This document shows, piece by piece, positions 3,585-22,125 of a DNA stretch of 64,000 nt. Under the pieces are notes generated by a model that ran no database searches, was not told the origin of the DNA, and saw only the letters and a program-made list of their open reading frames with translations. The stretch spans positions 32,001-96,000 of the forward strand of contig BTWA01000001.1 in NCBI GenBank assembly GCA_045863295.1, given 5' to 3'. Position 1 is the first letter of the stretch, and every line of letters begins with the position of its first letter. This DNA is from Candidatus Hydrogenedentota bacterium (GTDB lineage: Bacteria > Hydrogenedentota > Hydrogenedentia > Hydrogenedentales > SLHB01). A program made the position numbers and the translations under genes.

Positions 3585-3771
3585 TCCACGTATCTCCTCC
3601 ACCTTGAATACTGCCCGTTGCGTCAGTCGTCCAGGCAGGATACACATTGAACAGGGCAAGTTGAAACCACATAGCGGCGCAATTCCGCTCCAATGCCGCC
3701 GCGCTCGCCACCGGCACGCTTTGGCCCGCCAACCATTATTTGCTAAGGTGTACGCTTCACAGGAGAGTGCC

Positions 3772-4491
3772 ATGGGCGAGTTGATATTGGTGCGTCACGG
3801 GCAAGCCTCGTTTCACGACGAGAATTACGACAAACTGTCGCCATTGGGCGAAGATCAGGCGCGTTTGCTGGGCCGGTATTGGGCGCGCATTGGGTTCATT
3901 CCCAACCACCTGTTCAGTGGCCCCCTCGCACGTCAGCGCCGCTCGGCCGAACTGATTGCCGAAGGCTTTCGCGAGGCCGGCTTGCACGTGCCCGACCTCC
4001 GGATTGTGGATGACCTCGCGGAGATGCCGGTGGAAGAAATTGGTAAGCGCTTTCTTCCGCAGCTTTGCATGCAGGATCCCGAAATGATGGAAACGATGAT
4101 GCAGTTCTCCAATGCCGAGGATCGCATGGAAAAGGAAAGGCTGTTTCAACGCGTCTTTGAAAAAGTAGTGGCCATGTGGGGTGACGGTGCCTTCGCCGAG
4201 GCAGATGTTGAAACATGGGAGACCTTCGTGGGCCGGATTGGCCGCGCCATCGATCATGTTCTGAGCCACAACGGCGGAGGCGAACGCCTTGTCGTAGTTA
4301 CGTCGGGCGGTCCGACCGGAGTGACCGTGCAACGCGCGCTGGGGCTGGACGCGCCGACGACCATGAATCTCATGTGGCGTATTCGCAACGCGTCGATCAC
4401 GGAATTCTTGTTTACCGAGGGGCGCATGACGATGTCCTCCTTCAACGCCGTACCTCATTTGGAAGACCCGGACTTCTGGACGTACCGGTAG
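3772..4491 (+). CDS. Histidine phosphatase (phosphoglycerate mutase) family protein
   Basis: MGELILVRHGQAS (RHG motif), SGPLARQRRSA, VVTSGG, SSFNAVPHL. RBS AGGAG upstream. Confidence 0.9.
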   Translation: MGELILVRHGQASFHDENYDKLSPLGEDQARLLGRYWARIGFIPNHLFSGPLARQRRSAELIAEGFREAGLHVPDLRIVDDLAEMPVEEIGKRFLPQLCMQDPEMMETMMQFSNAEDRMEKERLFQRVFEKVVAMWGDGAFAEADVETWETFVGRIGRAIDHVLSHNGGGERLVVVTSGGPTGVTVQRALGLDAPTTMNLMWRIRNASITEFLFTEGRMTMSSFNAVPHLEDPDFWTYR

Positions 4492-4648
4492 TTGAACGTG
4501 AATTGAATGCGACGCACCATGCCTGGATTTTCTCCGTTGCCAGTTGGGTTTGTGCGGGGCGCGATGACTCTTCTCTCTTTCTAGGGAGAGGTTGGGCGAG
4601 CGGGAAAAATGTGTCCCTGGGAATTGCACATTAATAGGGAGTGCACCG

Positions 4649-5866: not shown

Positions 5867-6930
5867 TTGGCGTCGACGGCACCGCGCCTGTTCGCCACGG
5901 CGAGGAGCTCAACATCTCCGCGCTGGAATCGTATCTCCACAGGACCGTGCCGGAAACCAGCGGATCCCTGGTTATCGAACAATTCCCGAGCGGGCATTCG
6001 AACCTGACCTATTTGATTCGACTGGGCGAGCGGGAGTGGGTGTTGCGCCGCCCTCCGTTCGGCAGCAAGGTGAAAGGCGCGCACGACATGAAGCGCGAAT
6101 ACACCGTGCTGGAAAGATTGCATCCCGTGTACGCGCCCGCGCCCAAGCCGGTGGTCTTCTGCGACGATCATTCTGTCATCGGTTCCGACTTCTATGTGAT
6201 GGAGCGCATCCAAGGCGTGATCATGCGCCACAAAAAGCCATCCGATTTTCCGGCCGTTTCACCCGAACTCGCATCGGCATGCTGTCGTGGCTTTGTCAAG
6301 AATCTCGCCACCTTGCATGGCCTCGACTACAAGGCCATCGGGCTGGACGCATTGTACAAGGGCGACGGATACGTCCTGCGCCAAGCGGAAGGTTGGGCCA
6401 AGCGATACGAAGGGTCGAAAACCGACGACATCGCGGAAATCGATCGGGTCATCGCCTGGCTCAAGGACCACGTGCCCATGGATACCGGAGCGGTCCTGAT
6501 TCATAACGACTACAAGTTCGACAACGTGGTGGTCGCTCCCGAAGACCTGACTCGAATAATCGGCGTGCTGGATTGGGAGATGTGCACCATCGGCGATCCA
6601 CTCGCGGACTTGGGCACCTCGCTCAGCTATTGGATGGAACCCGCGGACGCAGACGCGTTCAAAACGGTTCAGTGTTTCATGACCACATTGCCCGGCGCGA
6701 TGACCCGGCAGGAAGTAGCCAACACATACGCGGAAATCACCGGACGCGATCTGTCGAACATTCTCTATTACTACATACTCGCGCTGTTCAAGCTTGCGGT
6801 CATTGTGCAGCAGATCTACTACCGCTACAAGCAGGGCCTGACCCAGGACGAGCGGTTCGCGTCCATGATTGTCATGGTGCACTTGCTCGGGCGCAAGGCA
6901 GTCGAGAGCATCGAGACTGGACGGATGTAG
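5863..6930 (+). CDS. APH-family phosphotransferase (ACAD10/11 kinase domain or LvaA-like)
   Basis: QFPSGHSNLTYLI, VLRRPP, AHDMKREY, FYVMERIQG, LIHNDYKFDN, GVLDWEMCTIGDPLADLG. ATGA overlap with the acyl-CoA dehydrogenase. Confidence 0.92.
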   Translation: MIGVDGTAPVRHGEELNISALESYLHRTVPETSGSLVIEQFPSGHSNLTYLIRLGEREWVLRRPPFGSKVKGAHDMKREYTVLERLHPVYAPAPKPVVFCDDHSVIGSDFYVMERIQGVIMRHKKPSDFPAVSPELASACCRGFVKNLATLHGLDYKAIGLDALYKGDGYVLRQAEGWAKRYEGSKTDDIAEIDRVIAWLKDHVPMDTGAVLIHNDYKFDNVVVAPEDLTRIIGVLDWEMCTIGDPLADLGTSLSYWMEPADADAFKTVQCFMTTLPGAMTRQEVANTYAEITGRDLSNILYYYILALFKLAVIVQQIYYRYKQGLTQDERFASMIVMVHLLGRKAVESIETGRM

Positions 6931-7054
6931 AAACCGGAGCGTTTTGTGCCTGGCAAGCGCGCTAGCCTACGGGCTCGGATTTCGCGATGAATCAAGCCGC
7001 TGGTTCTTCTGCAACGCGGCCGCCATACGACGTCGCGCCATCAGGAAGTGGCCC

Positions 7055-7177
7055 GGACCGCTTAATCCCGCTGAATGTGCATGACTGCGCGAACGGGACT
7101 CCAACCTCACGGGAATAACCACCGGGAATTCGATCCGGCGGACGGCCAATTGGTACGATCCCGAGACAGGAAAGTAC
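7055..7177 (+). ncRNA. Candidate riboswitch-like structured leader resembling a SAM-I/IV variant
   Basis: Nested stems TCCCG/CGGGA, GTGCA/TGCGC, CCGG/CCGG and GTAC-GA-TCC...GG-AAA-GTAC, with core GACTCCAACC-TC-ACGG-GAATAA-CCAC. Ends 5 nt before RBS AAGGA. The SAM-I/IV resemblance is recalled, not computed. Confidence 0.45.
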
Positions 7178-7195
7178 GTCACAAGGAACAACGAC

Positions 7196-7600
7196 GTGAA
7201 CACAAACGAACTCATCAAGCAGTACTACGCTGCGTTTAATGCCGGCGACATGAACACATTTCTGGGCTTGCTGACCGAGGATGTCGTGCACGACATCAAC
7301 CAGGGTGGGCGGCAAATTGGCCGAGAGGCGTTTAGAACCTTCATGGACCGCATGAACGCCTCGTACAAAGAGGAGCTCGTGGACATCCTGATCATGACAA
7401 GCGATGACGGATCGCGCGCCGCGGCCGAGTTTACGGTACTGGGCAAGTATCTGAAAACCGACGAAGGCCTGCCCCCGGCCAAGGGCCAGACGTACCGCTT
7501 GCCCGCGGGCGCTTTCTTTGAGATTCGCGATGGCAAAGTCTCACGCGTAACCAACTACTATAACCTGCAAGACTGGCTTGCCCAGGTGAAGGAAGCCTGA
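7196..7600 (+). CDS. SnoaL/NTF2-like ketosteroid-isomerase-related protein
   Basis: YYAAFNAGD...LLTEDVVHDINQG...RAAAEFTVLGKYLKTDEGLPPAKGQTYRLPAGAFFEIRDGKVSRVTNYYNLQDW. GTG start after AAGGA. Confidence 0.88.
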   Translation: MNTNELIKQYYAAFNAGDMNTFLGLLTEDVVHDINQGGRQIGREAFRTFMDRMNASYKEELVDILIMTSDDGSRAAAEFTVLGKYLKTDEGLPPAKGQTYRLPAGAFFEIRDGKVSRVTNYYNLQDWLAQVKEA

Positions 7601-8205
7601 TGTCCACGGAAGGCATAACCATCCGCACCTTGACCGGCAGAGCCATGCAGCCGTACTTGCCTGACTTGGCCCGCCTGCGAATCGCTGTCTTCCGGGATTT
7701 TCCTTACTTGTACGACGGCACCGTGGAATACGAAGAGAAATATCTGCAGACCTATCTCGAAACGTCTGAGAGCATCATCGTACTGGCACTGGAAGGCGAA
7801 AAAGTCATCGGCGCCTCCACCGGCTTGCCGCTGGACTGCGAAATCGATGATTTCATTAAGCCGGTGGCTGCGAACGGATACGACCCATCGCGCGTGTTCT
7901 ACTGCGGCGAGTCCGTCCTGCTCAAACCCTACCGCGGCCGAGGCCTATACAAATTCTTCTTTCAGGGCCGGGAAGATCACGCGCGCGCACTGGGCCGTTT
8001 TGAGTACACGGCCTTCTGCGGCGTGCAGCGCCCGATCGATCATCCACTTAGCCCACCCGACTACGAACCCCTCGATCCCATCTGGGAAAAGTTCGGCTAT
8101 GTAAAGCAACCGCACCTCATTGCGCGTTATGTCTGGAAAGACGTGGACAAAGACTCTGAAACGGCAAAGCCGATGGTCTTCTGGATGAAAAAGATCGTCC
8201 GTTAA
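7600..8205 (+). CDS. GNAT-family N-acetyltransferase
   Basis: LARLRIAVFRDFPYLYDG, IGASTGLP, FYCGESVLLKPYRGRGL (acetyl-CoA loop). Coupled to the upstream gene by TGATG. Confidence 0.88.
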   Translation: MSTEGITIRTLTGRAMQPYLPDLARLRIAVFRDFPYLYDGTVEYEEKYLQTYLETSESIIVLALEGEKVIGASTGLPLDCEIDDFIKPVAANGYDPSRVFYCGESVLLKPYRGRGLYKFFFQGREDHARALGRFEYTAFCGVQRPIDHPLSPPDYEPLDPIWEKFGYVKQPHLIARYVWKDVDKDSETAKPMVFWMKKIVR

Positions 8206-8280
8206 CGCGACTAGCCCGCATGTAGCGCCAAGCGCGCTTTTAGCATGGCGAGAAGCGCGGCAGCCCCGGGGAGAATACCG

Positions 8281-9708
8281 ATGCGTACCATGCCACTTCT
8301 GTTGGCGATTTGTCTGGTAAAGGCCATGAGTGCCTACGCCGAAGCCCCCTCCGGAGACGAGGCGCGCCAAGCCCTGAAACGCGCCGCCGTTTTCTTCAAT
8401 GAGACCGTGACCGTGGAAGGCGGCTACCTTTGGCGCTACAGCGCGGACCTGGCGCAGCGCGAAGGCGAGGTTAAGGCAACCGCAACGGAATCGTGGGTGC
8501 AACCGCCGGGAACGCCCACCGTCGGCGAAGCGTATCTCGCCGCGTACGAAGCGACCGGCGATCCGTACTACCTGGAAGCGGCTCGAAAATCCGCGCGCGC
8601 ACTCGTGCACGGCCAGTTGCAGTCTGGAGGCTGGGAGTACCGGCTCGAAGCCGGCACGGAGAAACGCAAAGCGTATGCGTTTCGCGCCGACAACAACGAA
8701 AGCGGCAAGAACGTATCCACGCTGGACGACAATACGACGCAAGCAGCTCTGCAATTCCTGATGAAGTTTGACAAGGCCGTTCAATTCAAGGATCCGTCTG
8801 TTCACGAGGCCGTCGAATATGCGCTTGCCAAGTTGATGGAGGTACAGTTTCCAAACGGTGCATGGCCGCAGCGCTTCAGCGGTCCCCTCGACCCCGCAGA
8901 GCACCCGGTCATTAAGGCAAGCTATCCAGAGTCCTGGTCAAGAGACTATGTGCAACGTTCATACTACGGCCACTATACATTCAATGACGGCGGAATTAGC
9001 GATACCATCGACACGATGCTGCTGGCACACGACATCTATGATATCACCGCCTACCGGGACTCTGCCATCAAAGCCGGCGATTTCATTTTGTTGGCCCAGA
9101 TGCCCGATCCCCAACCCGGATGGGCTCAACAGTACGATGCGAACATGCATCCCGCGTGGGCACGCAAGTTCGAGCCACCCGCAATTACCGGGGGAGAGTC
9201 CCAAGGCGTCATGCGTACTTTGATCCAGCTTTCTCTCAGAACCGGCGAGAGACGCTTTCTCGAACCGATTCCGCGCGCGCTGGCCTACTACCGCGCGTCC
9301 GTTCTGCCGGATGGCCGATTGGCCCGATTCTACGAACTGCAAACCAACCGGCCCCTATTTTTCACCAAGGACTATCAGCTTACCTACAGCAGCGATGACA
9401 TGCCCACACACTATTCGTTCATCACGTCGAACAGTCTCGACAGCATTCAAGACGAGTATGAAGTAGCTGTTCGCACGTTGGATGAAAAAGAGGGATCAAA
9501 AAAATCGGTACGCGTGCCACGCGCGGTGCCCGCCGATCCAGTCGCGGTGCGCGAAGCCATCGACGGTCTCGACGCACGAGGTGCCTGGGTAACCACCGGG
9601 CGTCTCCGGAGCGAAGGCGAGGACGGCGACACGCGGCAAATCATCGATAGCAGCGTGTTCTGCACCAACATTCGAATCTTGACTGCGTACATACGTGCCA
9701 GGCAATAG
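8281..9708 (+). CDS. Secreted pectate lyase, PL10 (PelA-like)
   Basis: Signal peptide, STLDDNTTQAAL, QFPNGAWPQRF, YTFNDGGISD, QPGWAQQYDANMHPAWARKFEPPAITGGES. Confidence 0.8.
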   Translation: MRTMPLLLAICLVKAMSAYAEAPSGDEARQALKRAAVFFNETVTVEGGYLWRYSADLAQREGEVKATATESWVQPPGTPTVGEAYLAAYEATGDPYYLEAARKSARALVHGQLQSGGWEYRLEAGTEKRKAYAFRADNNESGKNVSTLDDNTTQAALQFLMKFDKAVQFKDPSVHEAVEYALAKLMEVQFPNGAWPQRFSGPLDPAEHPVIKASYPESWSRDYVQRSYYGHYTFNDGGISDTIDTMLLAHDIYDITAYRDSAIKAGDFILLAQMPDPQPGWAQQYDANMHPAWARKFEPPAITGGESQGVMRTLIQLSLRTGERRFLEPIPRALAYYRASVLPDGRLARFYELQTNRPLFFTKDYQLTYSSDDMPTHYSFITSNSLDSIQDEYEVAVRTLDEKEGSKKSVRVPRAVPADPVAVREAIDGLDARGAWVTTGRLRSEGEDGDTRQIIDSSVFCTNIRILTAYIRARQ

Positions 9709-9715
9709 CGGCCAA

Positions 9716-9889
9716 CCACGGATTTCACGAACAAAACTTAATGTCTCGGGGCCAAATTCCCGGAACACTCAGACGTGGCTGCAAACCGTCGCTTGTGCGT
9801 CACGCACCCTTTGGAATTGGCGAGCGTTGCATTCCAAACGTATTTGCCAATCCTCATAGAATGGAATGTCCCATTCGTGGAATTCGTGT
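9716..9889. repeat. Intergenic element bounded by imperfect inverted repeats (CCACGAAT-type REP-like family)
   Basis: CCACGGATTTCACGAA (9716-9731) is an imperfect inverse of TTCGTGGAATTCGTGT (9874-9889). A related CCACGAATGAGCACGAAT lies at 17734-17751. Confidence 0.55.
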
Positions 9890-10007
9890 TAACTCGGGGC
9901 TGAATTGTACCGCGTAAACTTGCTATACTCCCTCCGATTTTGTCCCCCTGGGGTACTCGATTCGCACTAAATACGCGGCTTTCCACGCCGTGACAAGGGG
10001 CTTTGCC

Positions 10008-11900
10008 ATGAGTTTTCCCATTCCAGTGAACGATTATGAGCCGCTGGTACTCGACCCGTCCCAACCGGCGCTGACGCCGGACCAGTTGGCCCACCTGCAA
10101 GGAAACGTGCAGCTCGTCCGCGACGTCATCATCTTCTACACCGCGATTGCCGGCATCAAAGGGCTCGCCGGCCACACCGGCGGCGCCTACAGCATCGTAC
10201 CGGAAGTGCTGATCGCCGATGCCTTCATGCGCGGAAGCGACAAGGTCTACCCCGCATTCTTCGACGAAGCAGGCCACCGCGTCGCGATTCAGTACGCCAT
10301 GGCGGCCTTCAACGGCCACATGCCCTTTGAAAAACTCTACCACTACCGCGAATACGGCCACGGCCTCTTTGGCCACCCGGAGTTGGAACCGGAAGAAGGC
10401 ATCATGTTCAGCTCTGGACGTCTCGGCCACCTGTGGCCGTTTGTCAATGGCGTGGCGTTGGCCCACCCCGGCAAAACCGTCTTCCTGTTCGGCAGCGACG
10501 GATCTCAAATGGAAGGCGACGACGCGGAAGCGGCCCGGCTTGCCGTAGCGCAGAAGCTGAATGTGAAACTCTGCATCGACGACAACAACGTGACCATTTC
10601 CGGTCATCCCAAGGATTATCTGCCGGGATACGACATCGGCAAGACACTCGCCGGCCACGGCCTCACCGTGGACGCGCACGACGCCGAAGATCTGGCCGCG
10701 CTTTACCAACGCATGCAAAAAGCAATGGCGACCGACGGGCCCGTCGCGCTGATTAACAAGCGCGTCATGGCGCCCGGCGTGCCCGGCATCGAAAACAACC
10801 ATGCTGGCCACGACGTGATCAAGAAAGACCACGCGGTCGCCTACCTCACCGCTCGAGGCCATACAGCGGCCGTGGACTATCTGAACAACGTCAAGGTGGA
10901 GAAGACGTCACAAACCTACCTGGGATCGTCCAAGGAAACTGCAGGCAACCGCGTGGAATTCGGCACCTACGTAAACGAAATCCTCGCGAAGATGACTCCC
11001 GAAGAGCGCAAGAGCAGCGTGATCGTCATTGACTCCGACCTCGAAGGCTCCACCGGGCTCAAAGCCATTCGCACCGCGCACCCCGATGTATGCATCAACG
11101 GCGGCGTGCAGGAACGCGGCAACTTCAGCGCGGCGGCGGGCTTCGGCTTTACGCCCGGCAAACAAGGCATCTTCAGCACCTTCTCGGCTTTCCTCGAAAT
11201 GATCGTGTCCGAGGCCACCATGGCGCGGTTGAACAAAGCCACTGCCATTTGCCACTTCTCCCATGCCGGCGTGGATGAAATCGCGGACAACACCTGCCAC
11301 TTTGGCATCAACGTATTCTTCGCCGATGCAGGTCTGGAAGACGACGACACAAAACTCTACTTCCCCGGCGATGCACTACAACTGAAAGCCCTGCTGTACA
11401 AAATCTGGAACGACCGTGGGCTTCGCTACGTGTTCACGAACCGCTCGAAGATTCCGTTTATCCTCAACGAAGACGGATCGAAATTCTACGACGGCAATTA
11501 CACATTTACTCCCGGGAAAGACGAGATCATTCGCAAAGGCACGGCGGGCTACGTCGTGTCCTATGGCGAATTGCTGTACCGGGCATTGGACGCCGTCGAG
11601 CAGGCGCGCAAAGCCGGCATCGACGTCGGCCTTATCAACAAACCGACCCTGAACGTGGTGGACGAAGAGACCACGGCCATCGCGGGCAAATCCCCGTTTG
11701 TACTCGTTGTTGAAGGACAGAATCTCAAGACCGGCCTCGGCGCGCGCTACGGCACATGGCTCATCGAACGCGGTCTCACGCCCAAGTTCGCGCGCATGGG
11801 CGTTACCAAACCCGGCTGCGGCGGTATCGAAGAACAAGTCCCCTTCCAGGGACTCGCGCCGTATGACATTCTCGAAAAGATCAAAGCGATGGGCGCGTAA
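10008..11900 (+). CDS. Transketolase-like ThDP-dependent enzyme (atypical single-chain type)
   Basis: LAGHTGGAYS, LFGHPEL, FSSGRLGHLW, ThDP-binding variant FGSDGSQMEG...DDNN, IDSDLEGSTG, GGVQERGNF, STFSAFLE. Confidence 0.85.
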   Translation: MSFPIPVNDYEPLVLDPSQPALTPDQLAHLQGNVQLVRDVIIFYTAIAGIKGLAGHTGGAYSIVPEVLIADAFMRGSDKVYPAFFDEAGHRVAIQYAMAAFNGHMPFEKLYHYREYGHGLFGHPELEPEEGIMFSSGRLGHLWPFVNGVALAHPGKTVFLFGSDGSQMEGDDAEAARLAVAQKLNVKLCIDDNNVTISGHPKDYLPGYDIGKTLAGHGLTVDAHDAEDLAALYQRMQKAMATDGPVALINKRVMAPGVPGIENNHAGHDVIKKDHAVAYLTARGHTAAVDYLNNVKVEKTSQTYLGSSKETAGNRVEFGTYVNEILAKMTPEERKSSVIVIDSDLEGSTGLKAIRTAHPDVCINGGVQERGNFSAAAGFGFTPGKQGIFSTFSAFLEMIVSEATMARLNKATAICHFSHAGVDEIADNTCHFGINVFFADAGLEDDDTKLYFPGDALQLKALLYKIWNDRGLRYVFTNRSKIPFILNEDGSKFYDGNYTFTPGKDEIIRKGTAGYVVSYGELLYRALDAVEQARKAGIDVGLINKPTLNVVDEETTAIAGKSPFVLVVEGQNLKTGLGARYGTWLIERGLTPKFARMGVTKPGCGGIEEQVPFQGLAPYDILEKIKAMGA

Positions 11901-11958
11901 GTCAACGCGAGAGCCGTATAGCAAGTATACGAGTGAGACACTTTCACCGTCACGTACG

Positions 11959-11988
11959 TCCCCTCCCGACAGGGAGGGGATTTTTTTT
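11959..11988 (+). terminator. Rho-independent terminator
   Basis: TCCCCTCCC-GACA-GGGAGGGGA-TTTTTTTT: perfect 9-bp stem and T8. Confidence 0.93.
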
Positions 11989-12056
11989 GGTAAGGCCGTT
12001 TTGACGACCCCATCTCGCTGAACAGATAAATCGAAGCCGGTTGTGGCCTTGCCTCA

Positions 12057-12222
12057 CGAGCATGCCATTGCGCCCGACCGGGAGGTTTCCCTGTTCTTGC
12101 CGCTTTCGTCCGATGCAAAGAGGAGGTCGCACATTGCCCCATACTGTCCTCTTCATTGTCGCCACGGCGGGCTTCGAAACCGCAAGCGAGCTTGCTTGGG
12201 TAAGGCGGCAGCAAGCTACCGC
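12057..12222 (+). repeat. 166-bp direct repeat, left copy (REP/REPIN-like, multi-hairpin)
   Basis: Matches 17851-18016 with 7 substitutions and no indels. Contains GCAAGC-GA-GCTTGC and GCGGCAGC-AA-GCTACCGC hairpins. Confidence 0.95.
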
Positions 12223-12692
12223 GGTCCAAAAAAAGCGCAGACTTGATGTGAGGATTGCCGCGTTGGCTTGATTCCATTCTGGTTGACTTCGCATCCTTTT
12301 TTGGCCGTTCCCTACCTTTATGTCCCGCTTGTTGCAGTTTGCAGGAGGATGTACCGAGTGGATTGGCTCGGTACGTCGGATTCAAACGAGGGGTTACAAA
12401 AATGTACACCGGCAATAACGTAAGCATTGACAATGAGTTTGGGTGTTGCTCCACGGTTGCGAGTCTGATCTTATCCGATCTTTGAGGGACTCGATTTGCG
12501 TACGCTCTAACGTTGGAAACAAAAGAAGCACATCGGTTAAACCGACTTGCGGGAAGAAATCGTACGTCAAGGCATCGGACAATTGGGGCTGCAGTAAGCT
12601 GGAATACCGATGAGAGCAAATTGATTGCAGGTTTAGACCTACGACAAAATCTACGTATACTACCTGGCTAGGCAAAAGGGGCAACTCCACAG

Positions 12693-15600
12693 ATGCAGTT
12701 TCTGAAGAATGGACCAGACGTTCCTGATCGACTGCTTCAAGATCACGAAGAAGGAAGAGTCGTCTTTTTCTGTGGTGCTGGAATTTCCTACCCGGCCGGA
12801 CTGCGAGGATTTAATTGGCTTGTTGACGAAGTGTATGGCCATTTCAACATCGTGCCCAACTCAGTTCAGGAGGCCGCAAGAAAATCGGGTAGATTCGATA
12901 TGGCAATTGGCTTATTGGAGTCGGAAGTACCTGGGGGCAGGTTAGCGGTACGGGAGGCTATCAGAAATTTCCTATTGCCAAAGTCGCTTAATCGGAAAGC
13001 CACTGAGACTCACCAAGCGCTGCTCACTTTGAGCAAGAACCGCGGCGGTGAATATCGGTTGATCACTACGAATTTCGACCGACTCTTCGAGGAATCAGCT
13101 TCACGGGATGGCCTAGAATTCGAGCGATTCGCGGCTCCAATGTTACCTATACCCAAACAAAAAAGAATCAACGGCCTAGTTTACCTTCACGGTTTGTTAC
13201 CAGCGACATCAGACACAAATGCGCTACAAAGACTGGTCATTTCGAGTGGAGATTTTGGGCTTGCGTACTTAACTGAACGTTGGGCCGCCCGGTTTGTTGG
13301 CGAGATTTTTCGTAATTTCACCGTTTGTTTTGTGGGATACAGCATAAATGATCCAGTACTTCGCTATATGATGGATGCTCTGGCCGCGGACAAGCTATTA
13401 GGCGAGGCGTCGCCTGAATTTTTCGCATTCGGCGAATATAAGATAGGTCACAGAGAAAAGGCGGAAAGCGAGTGGAAAGCGAAGAATGTTACCCCAATTC
13501 TCTATAAGTTGAATAAGGCACACTCGCTACTTCACAAAACGTTAAGCGAGTGGGCGCGTACGTATCGAGACGGGGTTCAGGGCAAGGAAAGAATTGTCTC
13601 ACAATATGCGTTGGCGATGCCGACATCCAGTACGGAGCAGGACGACTTTGTGGGGAGGATGTTGTGGGCAATAAGCGACCTGAGCGGCTCTCCTGCCAAG
13701 CATTTTGCCGAGTTTAAGCCTGCCCCGCCTCTGGATTGGCTTGAGTACTTCTATTTCAAGAGATATAGGCATGCTGATTTAATTAGATTTGGAGTTCGGC
13801 CTAATAATGACGTGGATGACAAATTAACCTTTAGCGTTGCGGAAAGACCTTGTCCATATGCTCTAGCGCCGTGGATGCGATTGCTAGGATCTGGCACTTC
13901 CGGCGCAAGTTGGGACAATATCCAACAAAACTTGGCGCGATGGCTTTCAAGGCATCTGGGAGACCCTCGATTGATTCTGTGGCTCACCAAGTATGGTGGC
14001 CACATACATCAAGAACTGGCGCGCACAATTCAGGCGGAACTTTCCAGGATTCAGAGGCTTCAGCAGAACGCGAACAGCGCTTCACTCCAGCAAATCTTGG
14101 ACGCATCTCCAAACGGAGTACCTGATGACCGTTTGTACTCAATTTGGAGAATGGTCTTGGACGGCCAAACAGCAGCCAACGGCAATCAGTTTGGTCTCTA
14201 CGATTGGTTTGGAAAATTGGCGCACAGTGGTTTGACTGCCAGCCTCCGTGTAGAGCTACGGAGGCTTCTGGCGCCGCGCGTGATGTTCAGGGCCGCATTT
14301 CATGTACCTGACAACAGTAACGCAACTCAAGGGAGGCCAGAAAAGGAAGAAATTGAATGGGACCTAGTACTGGCAACGAGACATGTTCATTCCACAATCA
14401 GTGACCATGGGAACGATGCGGCTTGGCTCAAAGTTATAGGTAACATTTATCCGGATATTTTTCCGCTACTACGAGACGCACTGGACTTGATGCGTGATCT
14501 TGGGGGGGCCGACGACAAATTCGACAGATCCTATATCGACCACCCTTCAATACCGAATCACCCTCAGAACCACAATTTTCATGATTGGACGGTATTGATA
14601 GTTCTTCTCCGAGACTCTTGGTGCGCCATTGCAAAGCAAGACATTGTACGAGCACGACGTTATGCCGAGGACTGGTTTGAAATGCCTTATCCACTATTTA
14701 AGCGACTCGCATTTTTTGCAGCGAGAAGCGAGAATGTAATTGAGAAAGAACAGGCTGTCGCGTGGATACTTTCTGACAACGGTTGGTGGCTCTGGTCAAC
14801 AGCTACTCAAAGAGAGGTTATTCGCTTACTGGCTTGGATTGGCGTCAGGCTTGAGCGGTCGGAATTGAAAAATCTGGAAAATGCGATATTGGCTGGACCC
14901 CCGAGGGAAATGTTCAAAGACGACCTTTCCGTTGAGGATTGGAATAGAATAATTGATAGGATAATTTGGCTGCGGTTAGCGAAGTTGGTAGACGCAGGAA
15001 CTCAACTTGGAACTGAAGCATTAGCCAAGTATAGAGAAATATCTGAAAGAAGATCTGAGTGGAGAATAGCTGAGGATGAACGTGACGAGTTTCCCTTTTG
15101 GCTAGGTGACGGTGATGACGGGCGAAGCTACACAGCTACTCCAATTCATCGACGAGAACTTGTGGAATGGCTAAAGCTAAATCAAACCGAAGACCATTGG
15201 GATGAAGACAATTGGCAAGAAAGGTGCAGACGAGAGTTCGGCACGACATTCTGTGCTCTCTATTCACTCTCTTGCGAAAGCCTTTGGATTGTTGATCGTT
15301 GGCGGCAGGCCATTAATGCTTGGTCAGAAGAGAGTCTGGCTTACCGGCGTTGGAGATGGGTTGGCCCCGTGCTGTGGAACGCTCCAGACGATATCCTGAT
15401 TTCGCTATCACCCGGTCTTAGTAGGTGGTTGAATCTTGTCGCAAAGAAAGGTGAGGGCGCGTCGGTTCCCTTGCTGGCCTTTTTAGCCAGAATGCTGCAT
15501 TTAGATTACGAAGAGAAAGGCGTACACAAAGATTACGTTACCCACGCCTTGAACCATCCACTCGGAAGGACAGTAGACGCGGTCATCAAGATGTGGTACC

Positions 15601-16481
15601 GCCAGGGGTTGCAAGATGACCAGTCCTTGACAAGTCCGTACCGCGAATGGTTCACAGAGATATGTGATACAAGCAACATTGCTTTTCGCAATGGCCGCGT
15701 ACATTTAGCCGTTCACACAATGACGCTTTTCCGAGTCGACGAGGATTGGTGTAAGAGCCGCTTCTTGCCTTTGTTTGACTGGAACGTAAACGAATTGGAG
15801 GCTACCGCTGTTTGGCAGGGGTTTCTTTGGTCTCCACGCATTCATCACCCATTACTGGAGGCATTTAAGCAGTCGTTCTTGGCATGTTCTCATCATTACA
15901 CGGAACTCGGAGACTTTGGTAGTCAATACGCAAGATTCCTTACCTATGTTGCCCTTGATTCGGCGGATGTGTTCTCAGAAGGCGATCTGCGTCTAGCATT
16001 TCGAGCTTTGCCGCCGCACGCAATTGCCATAGTTGCCGATACATTAGCGGAATCGCTTAAGAGTGCTGGTCCGCAAAAAGAACAACATTGGTCCAATCGA
16101 GTGTCGCCGTTCTTGAAGTCGGTTTGGCCGCAGGGAAACGAATACGCTACGAAGGACATCGTGGAGAGTTTAGCCGAACTCTGTATCGTAAGTGGTAAAA
16201 GTTTCCCCGAGGCTTTTGACCAGTTAAGGCACTGGCTGAAACCAATCAAGAATCTTCATGTTATCTGCGTGCTGCTCGTCAAGTCAGAATTGTGCAGTCG
16301 CCATCCTGCGGAGGCGTTGCAATTCTTGGCAAAGATTGTGGATCTAGAGGCTGACTGGCCACCTCAAGAGCTTGAGCAATGCCTCAATGAAATCGTGTCC
16401 GCGTCGCCAGAACTTCTTGATGCGCCCTCAGTTCGGCAAATTAGAGAGTATCTTCACCGGATGCGTGGCAGGCTCGCATAG
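12693..16481 (+). CDS. dsr1: Anti-phage defence-associated sirtuin Dsr1 (SIR2-like NADase domain plus a long C-terminal DUF4020-like region)
   Basis: MQFLKNGPDVPDRLLQDHEEGRVVFFCGAGIS, LITTNFDRLFE, LVYLHGLLP, LVISSGDFGLAYLTERWAARFV, CFVGYSINDPVLRYMMDALAAD, QDDFVGRMLWA all match the Dsr1 family as recalled. 1262 aa, and visibly more AT-rich than the flanks. Confidence 0.9.
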   Translation: MQFLKNGPDVPDRLLQDHEEGRVVFFCGAGISYPAGLRGFNWLVDEVYGHFNIVPNSVQEAARKSGRFDMAIGLLESEVPGGRLAVREAIRNFLLPKSLNRKATETHQALLTLSKNRGGEYRLITTNFDRLFEESASRDGLEFERFAAPMLPIPKQKRINGLVYLHGLLPATSDTNALQRLVISSGDFGLAYLTERWAARFVGEIFRNFTVCFVGYSINDPVLRYMMDALAADKLLGEASPEFFAFGEYKIGHREKAESEWKAKNVTPILYKLNKAHSLLHKTLSEWARTYRDGVQGKERIVSQYALAMPTSSTEQDDFVGRMLWAISDLSGSPAKHFAEFKPAPPLDWLEYFYFKRYRHADLIRFGVRPNNDVDDKLTFSVAERPCPYALAPWMRLLGSGTSGASWDNIQQNLARWLSRHLGDPRLILWLTKYGGHIHQELARTIQAELSRIQRLQQNANSASLQQILDASPNGVPDDRLYSIWRMVLDGQTAANGNQFGLYDWFGKLAHSGLTASLRVELRRLLAPRVMFRAAFHVPDNSNATQGRPEKEEIEWDLVLATRHVHSTISDHGNDAAWLKVIGNIYPDIFPLLRDALDLMRDLGGADDKFDRSYIDHPSIPNHPQNHNFHDWTVLIVLLRDSWCAIAKQDIVRARRYAEDWFEMPYPLFKRLAFFAARSENVIEKEQAVAWILSDNGWWLWSTATQREVIRLLAWIGVRLERSELKNLENAILAGPPREMFKDDLSVEDWNRIIDRIIWLRLAKLVDAGTQLGTEALAKYREISERRSEWRIAEDERDEFPFWLGDGDDGRSYTATPIHRRELVEWLKLNQTEDHWDEDNWQERCRREFGTTFCALYSLSCESLWIVDRWRQAINAWSEESLAYRRWRWVGPVLWNAPDDILISLSPGLSRWLNLVAKKGEGASVPLLAFLARMLHLDYEEKGVHKDYVTHALNHPLGRTVDAVIKMWYRQGLQDDQSLTSPYREWFTEICDTSNIAFRNGRVHLAVHTMTLFRVDEDWCKSRFLPLFDWNVNELEATAVWQGFLWSPRIHHPLLEAFKQSFLACSHHYTELGDFGSQYARFLTYVALDSADVFSEGDLRLAFRALPPHAIAIVADTLAESLKSAGPQKEQHWSNRVSPFLKSVWPQGNEYATKDIVESLAELCIVSGKSFPEAFDQLRHWLKPIKNLHVICVLLVKSELCSRHPAEALQFLAKIVDLEADWPPQELEQCLNEIVSASPELLDAPSVRQIREYLHRMRGRLA

Positions 16482-16559
16482 AGACTGACAGCGCACTATC
16501 CGCTAGCTGTTTTCACCTTTCCCATTGTGCAATTCCCGCCTATCACTTGCCTTTCGTCC

Positions 16560-16602
16560 AAAGCGGTGTCGCCGCTTGTCAGCTTTGCCACCGCACTCCA
16601 TA
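16560..16602 (+). repeat. REP-like palindromic unit
   Basis: AAAGCGGTGTCGCCGCTTGTCAGCTTTGCCACCGCACTCCATA, with GCGGTG/CACCGC arms. Same AAAGCGG...CCGCACTCCA layout as the 3' end of the 166-bp repeats. Confidence 0.65.
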
Positions 16603-16732
16603 CCAGTGGCTGGCTTCCGTGGTGGTTGGTTTCGCTTGGGTGCCGCTATTGGGCTGATGTGGGAGGAGTGGTGTGTCGCCTCATGTGCCTTCAGTGCAAC
16701 ACGCCGGGCTTGTTAATAGGAGGATAATTCCT

Positions 16733-17743
16733 ATGCCTAGCAAGCCGGAGTCGGCGTTTGATGTTTTGAAGGGGGCTTATTTGGCGGTGGAGCCGCATGT
16801 GAAGGCGCATTTGGATGCGGTGTGTGAGGCGCGGGGGAAGGAGTCTGTGCGGGTGACGCCGTTGGGTTCGCCTTGTTCGCGGGCATGGGATGACGAGTGG
16901 GTTGCGGTGGTGGAGGCGAAGGAGGCGGAACTGGCGCGGCGGATCTGCGGGGCGCGGTCGGTGTCGGGTGGGCCGTGCGAGTTGTCGCCTGACCATGCGA
17001 ATGGGCGTTGCCGGTTTCATGGCGGGTTTGATTTGTCGGGGGGGCAGCGGGGGAACCGGAATGCGGTGGTGCATGGGTTGTATGCGCGGCGGTTGATGGT
17101 ATGCGGGCCGCAGTGCGGGATGTGGGGGTCGTGTCCGGTGGCGTGTCCGGAAATCGAGGCAATGGCTCCGAAGGATCGGCCGGTGTGTCCGTTTGAGTTG
17201 GCGGAGTATAACGCGGCGTTGACGGATGGGTTGGCGGTTGCGGATGGCCGGGATATGACGAGTCCGTTGCATCAGCAGACGGCGCATGCGCTGGCGTTGC
17301 TGCAGGTGATGATGTCGCGGGCGATGGCTACGATGTCGCGGAACGGGTTGTCGCCTTTTTCGGGTGAACAGGGGGAGCAGGCAAACAACGCGATGCGTGC
17401 GTTGATGCGGATTTTTTGGGAGTACCGTCAGTTGCGGGGTTTGTTTCCGCCGTTGGGGGAGGACGAGGCGCCTAGCGAGACGAGCGCGGTGCAGCAGGCG
17501 ATGCGGATGGCGGTGGATACGGATTTGACGCCGGAAGGGCAGGGGGATTTGCAGTTTCCGGCGAATCCGCGCGCGGTGTTGCGGACGGGATTTATCAACC
17601 TGGATCCTGGGGCGGCGCTTCGCGGGCCGCGGCCGGATATGCAGGCAGTGATGCCGCGCTGGTCAAAGCAGCGGAAGGTGGAGGCTGAGAACGTGGACGA
17701 GGACGAGGCCGAGCGCGAGGAAGAGGAATTTGACCACGAATGA
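16733..17743 (+). CDS. HGGxSTG-like (phage small-terminase-associated) Cys/His-rich domain protein
   Basis: ICGARSVSGGPCELSPDHANGRCRFHGGFDLSGGQRGNRNAVVHGLYA followed by CGPQCGMWGSCPVAC...PVCPFE and an acidic tail. RBS AGGAGG before ATG 16733. Confidence 0.65.
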   Translation: MPSKPESAFDVLKGAYLAVEPHVKAHLDAVCEARGKESVRVTPLGSPCSRAWDDEWVAVVEAKEAELARRICGARSVSGGPCELSPDHANGRCRFHGGFDLSGGQRGNRNAVVHGLYARRLMVCGPQCGMWGSCPVACPEIEAMAPKDRPVCPFELAEYNAALTDGLAVADGRDMTSPLHQQTAHALALLQVMMSRAMATMSRNGLSPFSGEQGEQANNAMRALMRIFWEYRQLRGLFPPLGEDEAPSETSAVQQAMRMAVDTDLTPEGQGDLQFPANPRAVLRTGFINLDPGAALRGPRPDMQAVMPRWSKQRKVEAENVDEDEAEREEEEFDHE

Positions 17744-17758
17744 GCACGAATGGTCCAA

Positions 17759-17823
17759 CCCGGATATTTCACGACGTTGTCCCATTTATTGTGTACCAAC
17801 AGATCCATAGAACTATTGTCGAA
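17759..17823 (+). mobile_element. Left-end fragment of the MITE/IS-like element at 52225-52429
   Basis: CCCGGATATTTCACGA is identical to 52228-52243, and ungapped similarity continues (TTGTCC..ATT..TGTGTA.CAACA) for about 50 more nt. Confidence 0.6.
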
Positions 17824-17850
17824 TGCGATGTGTTGGTTGTTGCGGGGCCG

Positions 17851-18016
17851 CGAGCATGCCATTGCGCCCGACTGGGAGGTTTCCCTGTTCTTGCCGCTTT
17901 CGTCCGATGCAAAGAGGAGGTCGCACATTGCCCCATACGGTCTTCTTCATTGTCGCCACGGCGGGCTTCGAAACCGCAATCGAGCTTGCTTGGCTAGGGC
18001 GGCAACAAGCTACCGC
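17851..18016 (+). repeat. 166-bp direct repeat, right copy
   Basis: 159/166 identical to 12057-12222 (offset 5794 nt). Ends 11 nt before the xerD stop codon. Confidence 0.95.
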
Positions 18017-18027
18017 AGGCCAGAGAA

Positions 18028-18939
18028 TTATCCCCTCGGATGAAACGCTTTGTGGGCTTTGCTCAATCGATCCGTGCTGACGTGCGTGTAGATTTGCGTG
18101 GTGGCAATGTCGGCGTGGCCGAGCATTTCCTGCACGGCGCGCAAGTCGGCGCCGTTGTCGACGAGGTGCGTGGCGAACGAATGCCGCAGTGTGTGCGGCG
18201 TGACATTGCCGCGGACGTTCGCCTGTCGCGCGTAGCGTTTGACTACGCGCCATGCGCTCGTGCGGCCCATTGGCCCTTTGCGTTTCATGGAAAGAAAGAC
18301 CGTGTCGGCGCGCGTATCCATCTTCGTGCGTTGGCGGATCCAGGCGTTCAATGCTTTTACCGCCTCTTCTCCCAACGGCACGATGCGCGTCTTGGAGCCT
18401 TTTCCCGTGACGCGAACCGAACTCTCTTCCACCGATACATCGCGCAGGCGCAACGTGATGAGTTCGCTGATGCGGAGTCCGCACGAATAAAACAGTTCCA
18501 GCATTGCCGCATCGCGAACGCCTTCGGGAGTCGATCGATCCGGTGCGGCGATCATGCGATCCACTTCGCGGGTCGTCATGACATCGGGCAGGCCTTTCGT
18601 GATGCGCGGCGACTCGAACCCTTCGGTGGGGTCGCCTTTGGCGAGTCCCTCGTCGCGGACAAAGCGGTGAAACCGCCGGATAGCGCTCAAGTGCCGCATG
18701 GCCGAACGCGCGGACAAGCCCTCCTTACGCAGTGCGATGAGATGATCCAGCAAACGTTCGCGGGTTACCTGTCCGAGGTCGGTCACTCCGGCTTCGGCCA
18801 AGTGATTGAGATAGCGCTGTAAGTCGGCGGCATATGCGGCGAGTGTTTTTTCGGCCAGACCGGATTCGAAGACGGCGGCCTGCATAAACCGATCGAGGTA
18901 CGGCCCGAACGGGCTGGTGTTTTGGACATCCTTATCCAT
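18028..18939 (-). CDS. xerD: Site-specific tyrosine recombinase XerD
   Basis: GLAEKTLAAYAADL, RDAAMLELFYSCGLRISEL, VTGKGSKTRIVP, TPHTLRHSFATHLVDNGADLRAVQEMLGHADIATTQIYTHV, and C-terminal HKAFHPRG. Confidence 0.9.
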   Translation of the reverse strand: MDKDVQNTSPFGPYLDRFMQAAVFESGLAEKTLAAYAADLQRYLNHLAEAGVTDLGQVTRERLLDHLIALRKEGLSARSAMRHLSAIRRFHRFVRDEGLAKGDPTEGFESPRITKGLPDVMTTREVDRMIAAPDRSTPEGVRDAAMLELFYSCGLRISELITLRLRDVSVEESSVRVTGKGSKTRIVPLGEEAVKALNAWIRQRTKMDTRADTVFLSMKRKGPMGRTSAWRVVKRYARQANVRGNVTPHTLRHSFATHLVDNGADLRAVQEMLGHADIATTQIYTHVSTDRLSKAHKAFHPRG

Positions 18940-19083
18940 GGGTGTATTGTACCAGATGTGTCAAGAATTTAGTATCGCCTCGTCTGGCAACCCTAATGAT
19001 TGAGTGTAATGCCCGACTCCCCGCTGGGTAAGGTGAATTGTCAGGAGTTTACGGCGCAACGAAGCGCATGGAGTAGCGACGGC

Positions 19084-19257
19084 ATGAGCAAGCCGAAAAC
19101 AATTTCAAAACCCAAGTCACTTTTTATCAAGGAGTTGGAAACGCCGCCCGCGTTGGCGGTGACTCAGGTCACGACTTTGGCGTTGGGCGAAGAGGGCGAT
19201 TCCAGTTTTCCCATTTCGCTGCCGGTGTTGGAGTATTTGAAGGGCAAAGCTGTTTAA
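19084..19257 (+). CDS. Graspetide (plesiocin-type, TTxxxxEE) RiPP precursor peptide, 57 aa
   Basis: MSKPKTISKPKS-LFIKEL-ETPPALAVTQV-TTLALGEE-GDSSFPISLPVLEYLKGKAV. Leader and core mirror plesiocin PsnA2 (LFIEDL...TTLAIGEE). GGAG RBS; ends 12 nt before the ATP-grasp gene. Confidence 0.85.
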   Translation: MSKPKTISKPKSLFIKELETPPALAVTQVTTLALGEEGDSSFPISLPVLEYLKGKAV

Positions 19258-19269
19258 CGGCGGCCACGG

Positions 19270-20178
19270 ATGGCGGCTGTACTGATACTGGGTTCGGAGA
19301 CGGACCCGCAAGTTGAACGGGCACGGAACGGCATACGGGCGCATGGCGGTCGGTCCTACTTGTGCGATACAACCACCCTTTCGGACCATACCTGCCTATC
19401 GATTCGCGATAACCGGGTTTATCTCGGATCGCGGACCATTCCCCCCATACAGTCCGTGTATTTGCGTGGGTTGGGCGTCAGCCCGCTTGCGCCTGAATGC
19501 CGTGACGATATGCGCAGGCGGCCTTACGGCCTCCTGGCTCAGGTAGACGAGCGCCGATCCCTGTTGGGGTCGGCGCTCAAGCTTTTGGAAGCGCGAGGGG
19601 TCCGAATCGTCAATACGATCGAGGCCAATGGGCTGCATGCGTTCAAACCGTACCAGCTTGCACGGATTGCTCAGGCCGGCGTGCCGGTGCCCCCCACACT
19701 GGCCAGCGCGGATCCCGGGCTGGTCCGGCAATTCGCGCATGCTCATGGGCGCGTGGTGTATAAACCCATTGGCGGAGGCGCATTGGTGCAACCGCTGACC
19801 GCGGCGGATCTTTCGCCCGAGCGGATCGAAGCGCTTGCGTTGGCGCCGGTGCTGTTTCAGAAATGGTGCGATGGCATTTCCCTCCGCGTATATGTGGCCG
19901 GACGCAAAGCCATTGCGGCGGCCGCGATTCACTCGACCGAACTCGACTACCGGCGCAAAGAAGACGCGGTGACTCCAATTCGCCTGACGGCGGATGAACG
20001 CCGCGCCGCCATTGCCGCCGCCAAGGCCTGCGGCATGCCCTTCACGGGGGTTGACCTGATCCGAATGAAGCGCGGCTTTGTCGTGCTGGAGTGCAACCCT
20101 TCGCCCATGTTCGCCGCGTTTGAAGACAAGACCGGCTTGGATGTTTCCGGGCCGTTGGCGCGTCTTCTGCTGGCCTGA
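19270..20178 (+). CDS. ATP-grasp ligase / graspetide synthetase (PsnB-like, RimK superfamily)
   Basis: FKPYQL...AGVPVPPTLAS, VVYKPIGGGA, APVLFQKW, LRVYVAG, ELDYRR (DFR-like), FTGVDLIR, VLECNPSPMF. Directly after the TTxxxxEE peptide. Confidence 0.88.
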   Translation: MAAVLILGSETDPQVERARNGIRAHGGRSYLCDTTTLSDHTCLSIRDNRVYLGSRTIPPIQSVYLRGLGVSPLAPECRDDMRRRPYGLLAQVDERRSLLGSALKLLEARGVRIVNTIEANGLHAFKPYQLARIAQAGVPVPPTLASADPGLVRQFAHAHGRVVYKPIGGGALVQPLTAADLSPERIEALALAPVLFQKWCDGISLRVYVAGRKAIAAAAIHSTELDYRRKEDAVTPIRLTADERRAAIAAAKACGMPFTGVDLIRMKRGFVVLECNPSPMFAAFEDKTGLDVSGPLARLLLA

Positions 20179-20290: not shown

Positions 20291-20611
20291 ATGGCTTGGC
20301 TTATTTTGTTTTTGGCGGGTTTGTTGGAAACGGTCTGGGCGATTGGACTGAAATACACGCACGGGTTTACCCGTTTCTGGCCTAGCGTTTTCACCATTGC
20401 CGCAATCGCCGCCAGCATGTACCTGCTCGCTGTTGCGTCGCGATCGTTGCCGATCGGCACCGCCTACGCCGTGTGGGTCGGCATCGGCGCGGCAGGTACG
20501 GTTGTTCTCGGCGCATTCCTCTTGGGCGAGCCTTTGAACCTGCCCCGGGTGTTCTTTCTCGCGCTGCTGGGCATTTCCATCGCCGGACTGAAGCTAACCG
20601 CGGCTCACTAG
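20291..20611 (+). CDS. sugE: SMR-family guanidinium exporter (SugE/Gdx)
   Basis: MAWLILFLAGLLETVWAIGLKYTHGFTR (membrane Glu13), SLPIGTAYAVWVGIG, AGLKL. Guanidine riboswitch upstream. Confidence 0.93.
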   Translation: MAWLILFLAGLLETVWAIGLKYTHGFTRFWPSVFTIAAIAASMYLLAVASRSLPIGTAYAVWVGIGAAGTVVLGAFLLGEPLNLPRVFFLALLGISIAGLKLTAAH

Positions 20612-22125
20612 GCCGAAAGTGCCGCCTCGAACCGGTGTATCAAATCTTCGATGGGCTCCAAACCCACGGAGACCCGCACGAGATACGGTGACACGCCCAC
20701 AGACTCCACCCATTCGAGTTCCTGGTAATGGGCCAGCAGCGTGTATGGACAAGCCAGCGTAAACACCGTGCCCAAGCTGGGCCCTTTGGAGACGCGCAAC
20801 GCATCGTAAAACCGTGGCGCCGTGTTGGGTGCATCGTGCAACAAGAGAGAAAACAGGCCGCCGTACCCTGCCCCGTCCCGCATAACGGCCGCGTAGTTTT
20901 CCGGCGTGTCGTACTTCGGGTAGTAGATGCGCTGCACCTTGGGGTGTTTTCGGAGATGGTCGCACAGTGCTTCCGCGTTGGCGTTGATTTGCCGCATGCG
21001 ATCAGGAAAATCCCGCGAATTGGATTCCAAGGTGACGGCATCCTCCCACCAGAGCCGGTCTTCGTATTCGACGGCGTGGGCAGTCTTCAACTCATTGTAG
21101 AACGGCGAATTCGAGTTCAGTATCAACGCGCCGCCCATGACATCGATCGATCCCGAGAAGTACTTGGTCAGGCTGGTGATGATCACGTCCGCGTAAGGCA
21201 ACAAGTCCGCGTTAATATACGAGGCGACGGTCTCATCCACGACCAGCGGCACGCCTCGCTCACGCAATGCTCTCGACAGGCGCGGCAGTTCCGCGCATTG
21301 CAGCAACGGATTGGCTGCGTGCTCGCAAAACAGCGCGCCAAAGGATTCGTTGGCGAGCAGCCATTCCACCGATTCATGGCTCTTTGCACCAAAATCAGGG
21401 AAAAACTCACGGGAAGGACCCCATTTCGTTTGAATATGCAGAAGATCCACATACGGAAAGCCGAGCTGAATCGTACGGGCGCCAGGCCGGCGTTCCCTCG
21501 CGGTTATCAGCGCACCGTTCAAAGCGGCCATACCGGAAGGATATAGAAACACATTGTCCGCGACTTCACCCGTCAACGTGGCAATGCGTTCCCGCACAGT
21601 CTGCTTGGCTTCGCGGCCTTCCCCCCGATCCGCCCGTTCTTCCAGGGTGGCGAGGGCGAGCCGGGAACTGACGATGTCGCCGTAATGCTGCCAGAACTTC
21701 TTGGCCAAACCGACAGCCTCGGCCGGAAAGATGGCCACGAACACATGGTTAAGTCCATACGGCTCAATCCGGGCCTGAACACCCTGGGTTTCCGCCATGA
21801 ATTGCCTGCACCGGGTGGCAACGCGCTCGGACGGCAAAGCAATGCACAGTTCGTTGGGATTGGCAAACCGCTCCCTGCACCGGTAGAACAGGTCGTTGAC
21901 GATAGGGTTAAACACGAACCGGGGATAGCCGCAGGACAAAGCCTCCAACAGAATGGGGTCATTTTCCTCGTACCTGACGACATGTTCCCACCGTGGCAGG
22001 GCGACAGATACCGCGTGAGGCGAGTCCGGAATGGGTTTGCCCAAATCCGCTTCTCGCCAGAGGGGGGCCTTCCATAACTTGTTCACGGGGGTAAGGAACT
22101 CCTTGTATGGTCGCGTAGGGCGCAA
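20608..22125 (-). CDS. PLP-dependent Cys/Met metabolism enzyme, long cystathionine gamma-synthase-like form
   Basis: LGKPIPDSPHAVSVALPRW, GYPRFV, FLYPSGMAA, GFPYVD, ITSLTKYFSGSIDVMGG (PLP Lys), KGPSLGTVFTLACPYTLLAHY, LVRVSVGLE. Exact start uncertain. Confidence 0.85.
   Translation of the reverse strand: MRPTRPYKEFLTPVNKLWKAPLWREADLGKPIPDSPHAVSVALPRWEHVVRYEENDPILLEALSCGYPRFVFNPIVNDLFYRCRERFANPNELCIALPSERVATRCRQFMAETQGVQARIEPYGLNHVFVAIFPAEAVGLAKKFWQHYGDIVSSRLALATLEERADRGEGREAKQTVRERIATLTGEVADNVFLYPSGMAALNGALITARERRPGARTIQLGFPYVDLLHIQTKWGPSREFFPDFGAKSHESVEWLLANESFGALFCEHAANPLLQCAELPRLSRALRERGVPLVVDETVASYINADLLPYADVIITSLTKYFSGSIDVMGGALILNSNSPFYNELKTAHAVEYEDRLWWEDAVTLESNSRDFPDRMRQINANAEALCDHLRKHPKVQRIYYPKYDTPENYAAVMRDGAGYGGLFSLLLHDAPNTAPRFYDALRVSKGPSLGTVFTLACPYTLLAHYQELEWVESVGVSPYLVRVSVGLEPIEDLIHRFEAALSA

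Follow-up and report, generated by a model that had tools for sequence, protein, structure and literature searches.

Graspetide groups were reportedly defined by Lee et al. 2020 (JACS) and Ramesh et al. 2021. According to the available part of the PsnB study (bioRxiv 10.1101/2021.03.09.434688), the core of group 2 graspetides is TTxxxxEE, and PsnB, the ligase of the plesiocin system, needs the LFIEDL motif of PsnA2 for binding. The same part of that text reports that the ring between core positions 2 and 7 (Thr32-Glu37) is made first by PsnB, that only the native TTxxxxEE is cyclised efficiently and that Arg101 of the enzyme is largely dispensable, and it describes the leader-pocket residues and Arg101 as conserved only in group 2a enzymes. 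Cleavage at a Gly-Gly site, together with a peptidase, is characteristic of microviridins, where such a site is often present, as stated in the portion of Makarova et al. 2022 (PMC8939145) that was accessible.

The gene pair described here lies on the + strand of the window, the whole 64,000-nucleotide stretch of DNA that was analysed, and very likely forms a two-gene cassette for a group 2 (plesiocin-type) graspetide, with a bicycle predicted on the core TTLALGEE and with a C-terminal tail that probably represents the remnant of a second core. The pair is real and probably functional. Its first gene (19084..19257, with the ATG at 19084 and the stop codon TAA at 19255-19257) encodes a precursor of 57 aa, MSKPKTISKPKSLFIKELETPPALAVTQVTTLALGEEGDSSFPISLPVLEYLKGKAV, and is preceded by a candidate ribosome-binding site, GGAG, found by sequence inspection 10 nt 5' of the ATG (19070..19073). 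Since the N-terminus MSKPKTISKPK agrees with the MKRTKxxSKK start of the relatives, the start is placed at ATG 19084 and not at TTG 19000. The leader recognition motif LFIKELE (residues 13-19, 19120..19140) is the counterpart of the PsnA2 LFIEDL named in the PsnB text, and the intact core TTLALGEE (residues 30-37, 19171..19194), for which two Thr-Glu esters are predicted, has the group 2 pattern given there. The remainder of the precursor contains a pseudo-core, ISLPVLEY (residues 44-51, 19213..19236), which occupies the place of a second core in a MAFFT alignment, and the C-terminal LKGKAV (19237..19254), which resembles the LKGK and TKAV ends of relatives (EEALKGK in L011; ESTKAV in L002 and L012). 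A gap of 12 nt (19258-19269) separates this gene from the second, which encodes a 302-aa ATP-grasp macrocyclase (19270..20178) assigned as PsnB-like by its homology to PDB 7drm. What the earlier note had read from this stretch, namely a 57-aa ORF with LFIKEL at 19120-19137 and TTLALGEE at 19171-19194, the 12-nt spacing, and the DYR and LECNPSPMF motifs of the ligase (residues 226-228 and 273-281), proved exact throughout.

When all six frames of the complete 6.3-Mb genome were scanned, the combination of leader motif and TTxxxxEE was seen once, at this locus, and the whole genome encodes a single PsnB-like ligase, which argues that the pairing of precursor and ligase is not due to chance. Scans for promoters and terminators around the pair gave nothing beyond shuffle level, the one sigma-70-like match (18923-18950) being no better than shuffles, and PADLOC holds no model for either protein.

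Among all PDB chains, 7drm was by far the best match to the ligase (E 1.5e-46, 162 bits, query residues 3-302). This chain is PsnB; 11 out of 11 residues named in the available text of the PsnB paper agree with the chain letter, the index being the native number plus 20. RimK and LysX chains were matched at about 1e-11 to 5e-9, with the RimK match starting at residue 192, and the MdnC and MdnB chains were matched weakly (E 6e-4 and 3.5e-3, respectively). The top NCBIfam model was the graspetide maturase TIGR04187 (GRASP_SAV_5884 maturase subfamily) at 91.8 bits against a cut-off of 350, which places the ligase outside that subfamily, and the ligase falls far under the curated cut-off of every NCBIfam graspetide model. 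Neither RimK family model reached its cut-off (TIGR00768, 76.4 bits against 143.4; RimK equivalog, 47.8 bits against 331). Both the PDB-wide and the NCBIfam rankings place PsnB or a graspetide maturase above RimK, which bears on the grouping with RimK/LysX that the earlier note had raised as a check.

PsnB residues, as named in the accessible part of bioRxiv 10.1101/2021.03.09.434688, were mapped onto the window ligase by hand via the 7drm alignment. Arg213, which recognises the ring-forming Glu, corresponds to R206; Arg72, a core contact, corresponds to R66; and the DFR233-235 loop at the ATP corresponds to DYR226-228, with Tyr where the D(F/W)R motif of that text has Phe or Trp. The pocket for the leader Phe is kept at five out of five positions (Y171/I193/L196/V201/F203 in PsnB; Y164/I186/L189/V194/F196 here), as is R192 for leader binding (R185), while R101, assigned to the second core Glu, and R181, assigned to leader Asp18, are replaced by D93 and Q174, respectively. 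When 21 members of the family were aligned, no variation was seen at R206, D226 and R228 and hardly any at R66, R185, L189 and Y227.

Binding of the precursor by the ligase is also supported by a model of their complex, built with alignments made in this analysis. The model scored 0.70, compared to 0.00 for the best of three controls, and passed a mark that 116 of 157 solved complexes had attained, as had 2 of 215 mismatched pairs, although this pass may reflect likeness, because PsnB-peptide structures have already been solved. At least 42% of the contacts agreed between runs. In the confident contacts, leader residues 10, 12-15, 17-18 and 21-22 meet ligase residues 164-166, 170-174, 180 and 185-194; F14 is placed against residues 164, 185, 186, 189 and 194, and G35-E36 of the core is placed at ligase residues 73-75, 123 and 276-280. 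The precursor pLDDT was 47-49, so its own fold is uncertain.

Building on the observed homology, on the residues that are conserved and on the synteny that precursor and ligase show across the clade, the following route is proposed. The ribosome would make the 57-aa precursor, and the ligase would bind its leader via Phe14 of LFIKELE, received in a hydrophobic pocket formed by Y164, I186, L189, V194 and F196, with R185. Arg206 would then bring a core glutamate to ATP for phosphorylation, and Thr30 and Thr31 would attack the acyl phosphates of Glu37 and Glu36, respectively; the order of these steps is the presumed one. The two predicted side-chain esters would be nested and would be formed with a loss of 36 Da, giving a hairpin-like bicycle on TTLALGEE. 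Removal of the leader and export of the product would be further presumed steps. By analogy with plesiocin, the product is most likely a serine-protease inhibitor.

The ligase is present in 35 of the 135 genomes of the phylum and in 25 of the 53 genomes of the window's family, its homologues carry the source names Candidatus Hydrogenedentes or Hydrogenedentota, and the nearest relative has 58% identity. In 25 of 29 relatives' loci (L002-L030), the ligase is directly preceded by a small ORF in which L[FY]IxxLE and TTxxxxEE are both present; conservation of the small ORF beside homologues, on which the earlier note had made its reading depend, is therefore clear. No precursor was found upstream of the ligase in L022, L025 and L030, and L024 offers only 238 nt of upstream sequence. 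At L025 and L030, both of which are loci without a recognisable precursor, a radical SAM/SPASM protein adjoins the ligase (L025:2550-3596:- and L030:1-798:+), a layout that may represent a different type of cassette with the same ligase clade. The ligase match in one further genome (G106:C10:373687-374585) is split between different frames (query residues 4-203 and 211-301) and is maybe a frameshifted or broken copy.

In the alignment of 25 precursors, L13, I15, L18, E19, P21, T30, T31, E36 and E37 are invariant and position 14 is F or Y, and the leader and first core of the window precursor agree perfectly with the resulting profile. Homology, key residues, the conserved small ORF and the complex model thus all bear out the original assignment of a plesiocin-type precursor with a PsnB-like macrocyclase. 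When 1.84 billion proteins were searched with the precursor profile, 805 cluster representatives were retrieved at E <= 0.001 and 200 at <= 1e-10; a word-index search with the precursor returned the window's own protein alone. The number of cores per precursor ranged from 1 to 19 among the best 150 of the 805 representatives, and ligase relatives accompanied by precursors of 1-13 cores come from Actinomycetota, Bacillota, Planctomycetota, Chloroflexota, Acidobacteriota, Melainabacteria and others. Group 2 graspetides are thus a large, widespread and already described kind. A full-text literature search combining Hydrogenedentes with graspetide found no report, and survey supplements may list such clusters.

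In a quick tree with SH-aLRT support only, the window ligase is the first branch of its clade (support 94 and 96) and sits on a long end branch (0.46). Sister to the Hydrogenedentota ligases, with a support of 99, is a clade of seven haloarchaeal ligases (L059-L063, L067 and L070). Their precursors are encoded on the opposite strand (e.g., L062:4680-4826:- and L067:2885-3025:-). In these precursors the leader is HFVEDLEER and is followed in most cases by a single core of TTLAVGEE type and by a second, different motif at the C-terminus with two Cys, [ILT]T[MQ][AS]C[YFA]ETGC, in place of which L059 and L070 end in GECPEKC.

The odd features of the window pair are mostly the norm in its clade. 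Two intact cores are present in 21 of the 25 related precursors, three have a single core (L010, L013 and L017) and one has a single core plus a degenerate second (L014, ITFKEGED); among 44 short representatives of the profile search, 32 have two cores and nine have one. P0199, P0214 and P0242 are further single-core relatives. The single core, which had been presented as unusual, therefore has known counterparts, and the same objection applies to the missing Gly-Gly site, none being conserved anywhere in the clade in the alignment of 25 precursors. The flanks of the relatives (65 flanking ORFs: sulfatases, hydrolases, regulators etc.) have nothing in common, indicating that precursor and ligase are the whole conserved module in the clade, and across these 65 ORFs a dedicated protease or exporter beside the ligase is absent as a rule. 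The observation that no such gene adjoins the window pair hence stands for dedicated ones, and fails as an oddity. Nor does the locus call for a distinct maturation or export route of an unreported kind, as had been suggested, since this minimal arrangement of two genes, with neither a protease nor an exporter, is the clade norm. The sole peptidase-like neighbour among the 65 ORFs is an alpha/beta hydrolase with S33 aminopeptidase-like Pfam matches, which lies upstream of the precursor, in divergent orientation, in two genomes that are close relatives of each other (L003:249-1142:- and L004:2570-3649:+).

A SugE-type SMR pump is encoded downstream of the pair (20291-20611) and is found beside no homologue. 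When XerD, SugE, the PLP enzyme and the HGG protein of the window were compared with the relatives' loci by tblastn, only the window's own locus was matched, which places all four outside the module. The HGG protein is a 356-aa product encoded at 16673-17743 (+), between Dsr1 and XerD, with an HGGxSTG domain (NF041373, 31.8 bits), an acidic C-terminus and no Pfam family; its gene has a strong GC skew of 0.37-0.39. The PLP enzyme, encoded at 20608-22125 (-), is a 505-aa protein of the Cys/Met metabolism family whose top NCBIfam model is BesB (198 bits, cut-off 800, residues 31-504). BesB is a dechlorinase/desaturase of terminal-alkyne amino acid synthesis. The 505-aa protein is possibly an unusual gamma-elimination enzyme.

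The sole recognised defence gene among the 13 proteins of 1116-20175 examined with PADLOC and NCBIfam is Dsr1 (12693-16481, + strand), a full-length anti-phage sirtuin gene (NF041818, 1705 bits, cut-off 1400; PADLOC Dsr1, 1496 bits). The GC content of this stretch is 0.46-0.51, compared to 0.57-0.63 for the graspetide pair, which is like its surroundings. The low GC suggests that Dsr1 is a horizontally acquired single-gene defence insert, and the graspetide module is host-like in GC and separate from it. The placement of the pair next to a defence island was thus overstated, one defence gene in a separate low-GC stretch being what is present.

The 20-aa tail of the precursor had been regarded as an unusual appendage and is best read, with moderate confidence from its alignment, as a diverged second core. 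With MAFFT, PISLPVLE-Y-LKGKAV lines up with the second core and the C-terminal end of two-core relatives (e.g., VTTLAIGEEALKGK), with ISLPVLEY against the usual TTLAIGEE and then LKGK, and the length of 57 aa matches that of two-core precursors (53-58 aa). In a 9-position PSSM made from 20 second cores, the best register was PISLPVLEY, but the match is not significant (7559 of 20000 shuffles were as good), and a global BLOSUM62 comparison with 20 second halves was marginal (178 of 3000 shuffles for the best score and 110 of 3000 for the mean). Because the window ligase branches first in its clade, the tree does not force a two-core ancestor. A frameshifted core in the tail was considered and rejected, as translation by eye revealed no TTxxxxEE in either other frame.

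Several studies have yielded sludge and bioreactor metagenome runs that contain near-identical DNA. In two other sludge runs, from two further studies, one contig of the first (X3) spans 18950-19294 with zero differences, and contigs of the second (X2) span 18950-19176 and 19192-19449, differing by a single synonymous change at position 19428. Gaps in the contig cover of X2 and X3 do not indicate that the DNA there is missing. Owing to this identity, the sludge DNA provides no variation for testing selection on the tail. Short contigs from two RNA libraries of two studies cover the 5' part of the ligase gene (19368-19548 and 19357-19528) and leave the precursor uncovered; they give a weak hint of ligase transcription, with DNA carry-over possible.

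The tail retains Ser45 and Glu50, which are ring positions 2 and 7 (the inner ring) of the pseudo-core, and it is conceivable, if unlikely, that it is a working half-core on which the same ligase forms a Ser45-Glu50 single lactone, giving a bicycle plus a monocycle with a loss of 54 Da. The inner ring is the one that PsnB makes first, by the account in the accessible PsnB text, and it is also the one that more often survives wear. The best 150 of the 805 representatives were scanned for 8-mers that have Gly at position 6 and three or more of the ring residues. All four ring residues were found in 932, with position 1 lost in 36, position 8 in 15, position 7 in five and position 2 in three, so that the outer positions are lost far more often than the inner, although the counted events are not independent of one another and some of the 8-mers are due to chance. 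The inner pair is likewise kept in other degenerate cores (ITFKEGED of L014, VTEALGEF of P0237 and the haloarchaeal [ILT]T[MQ][AS]C[YFA]ETGC), and Ser is found at position 2 in 25 of the 932 complete cores. Since worn cores keep this pair, there is room left for a working single-ring half-core. Against it, the Gly at position 6, which is nearly invariant and contacts PsnB Arg72 in the available description, is Leu in the pseudo-core, and the efficient cyclisation reported in that description is limited to native TTxxxxEE. Moreover, an S-x4-E spacing arises by chance in about one in eight tail shuffles, by our estimate, and conservation of the tail has no close relative to be judged by, the nearest ligase being at 58% and the other runs having identical DNA. 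Still more tentative is the extension that the half-core is functional and that plesiocin-type families, including the haloarchaeal one (xTxxCxETGC), use single-ring TxxxxE units as a selected building block and not as a product of decay; we consider this doubtful.

If instead the whole cassette were decaying, one of its two cores would have been lost and the precursor or its product would be without function. One core is indeed degenerate, the window ligase has the long end branch noted above, and plesiocin potency grows with the number of cyclised motifs, according to the part of PMC13097080 that was available. Nevertheless, both reading frames are intact, the ligase has every residue that is invariant in its family, leader and first core fit the profile perfectly, and at least three studies have sludge samples in which the sequence persists unchanged. 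In addition, true single-core relatives exist (L010, L013 and L017), from which one core seems enough. We therefore judge decay of the cassette improbable and retain the reading of a two-gene cassette with one intact core and a second-core remnant.

The Pfam RimK domain (3e-12) and the 76.4 bits of the RimK family model could be taken to mean that the enzyme is a housekeeping glutamate ligase of the RimK/LysX type and the small ORF a chance frame. This reading is extremely improbable and was rejected, given that RimK chains match only from residue 192 compared to residues 3-302 at 162 bits for PsnB, that 25 of 29 relatives' loci have kept the small ORF upstream and that the motif pair is single in the genome.

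With its one core and its ligase of 302 aa, the pair is a compact natural addition to the plesiocin-type graspetides, which are of interest as protease-inhibitor scaffolds and for peptide cyclisation, and it illustrates a minimal two-gene form that is common in Hydrogenedentota, a phylum that has been little studied. The way in which cores wear, with outer-ring residues lost and inner-ring residues kept, suggests that single-ring half-cores may be tolerated or used.

Of the known systems, the RimK and LysX alpha-L-glutamate ligases share with the window ligase the ATP-grasp fold and a similar C-terminal half, but they leave its N-terminal, substrate-binding part unmatched, have no precursor peptide and carry out amide ligation of free Glu. 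The microviridins (group 1; MdnA/MdnB/MdnC) are alike in having side-chain esters made by ATP-grasp enzymes on a ribosomal peptide and, according to the accessible part of bioRxiv 10.1101/2021.03.09.434688, in receiving a leader Phe in a hydrophobic pocket; they differ in their TxRxPSDxDE core, two ligases and cage topology, as far as that text and the available part of PMC8939145 describe them. Two-core precursors of the same phylum (L002-L030; P0131-P0238) have the same leader, the core consensus TTLA[IVL]GEE, the same length class (41-72 aa) and the same two-gene layout with unrelated flanks, but 21 of 25 carry two intact cores where the window precursor has one and ISLPVLEY. Finally, the plesiocin system of Plesiocystis pacifica (PsnA2/PsnB; 7drm, 7drn, 7dro and 7drp) has a ligase that is homologous over its whole length, and the two systems have in common, on the features named in the available PsnB text, an LFIxxL-type leader with a key Phe, the TTxxxxEE core, the core-binding Arg, the D(aromatic)R loop and the leader pocket; one ligase is expected to make all rings. 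The systems differ in that PsnA2 has four cores in that account, compared to one intact core and a degenerate second motif in the 57-aa window precursor, in that R101 and R181 of PsnB are not kept, and in the host, which here belongs to the phylum Hydrogenedentota.
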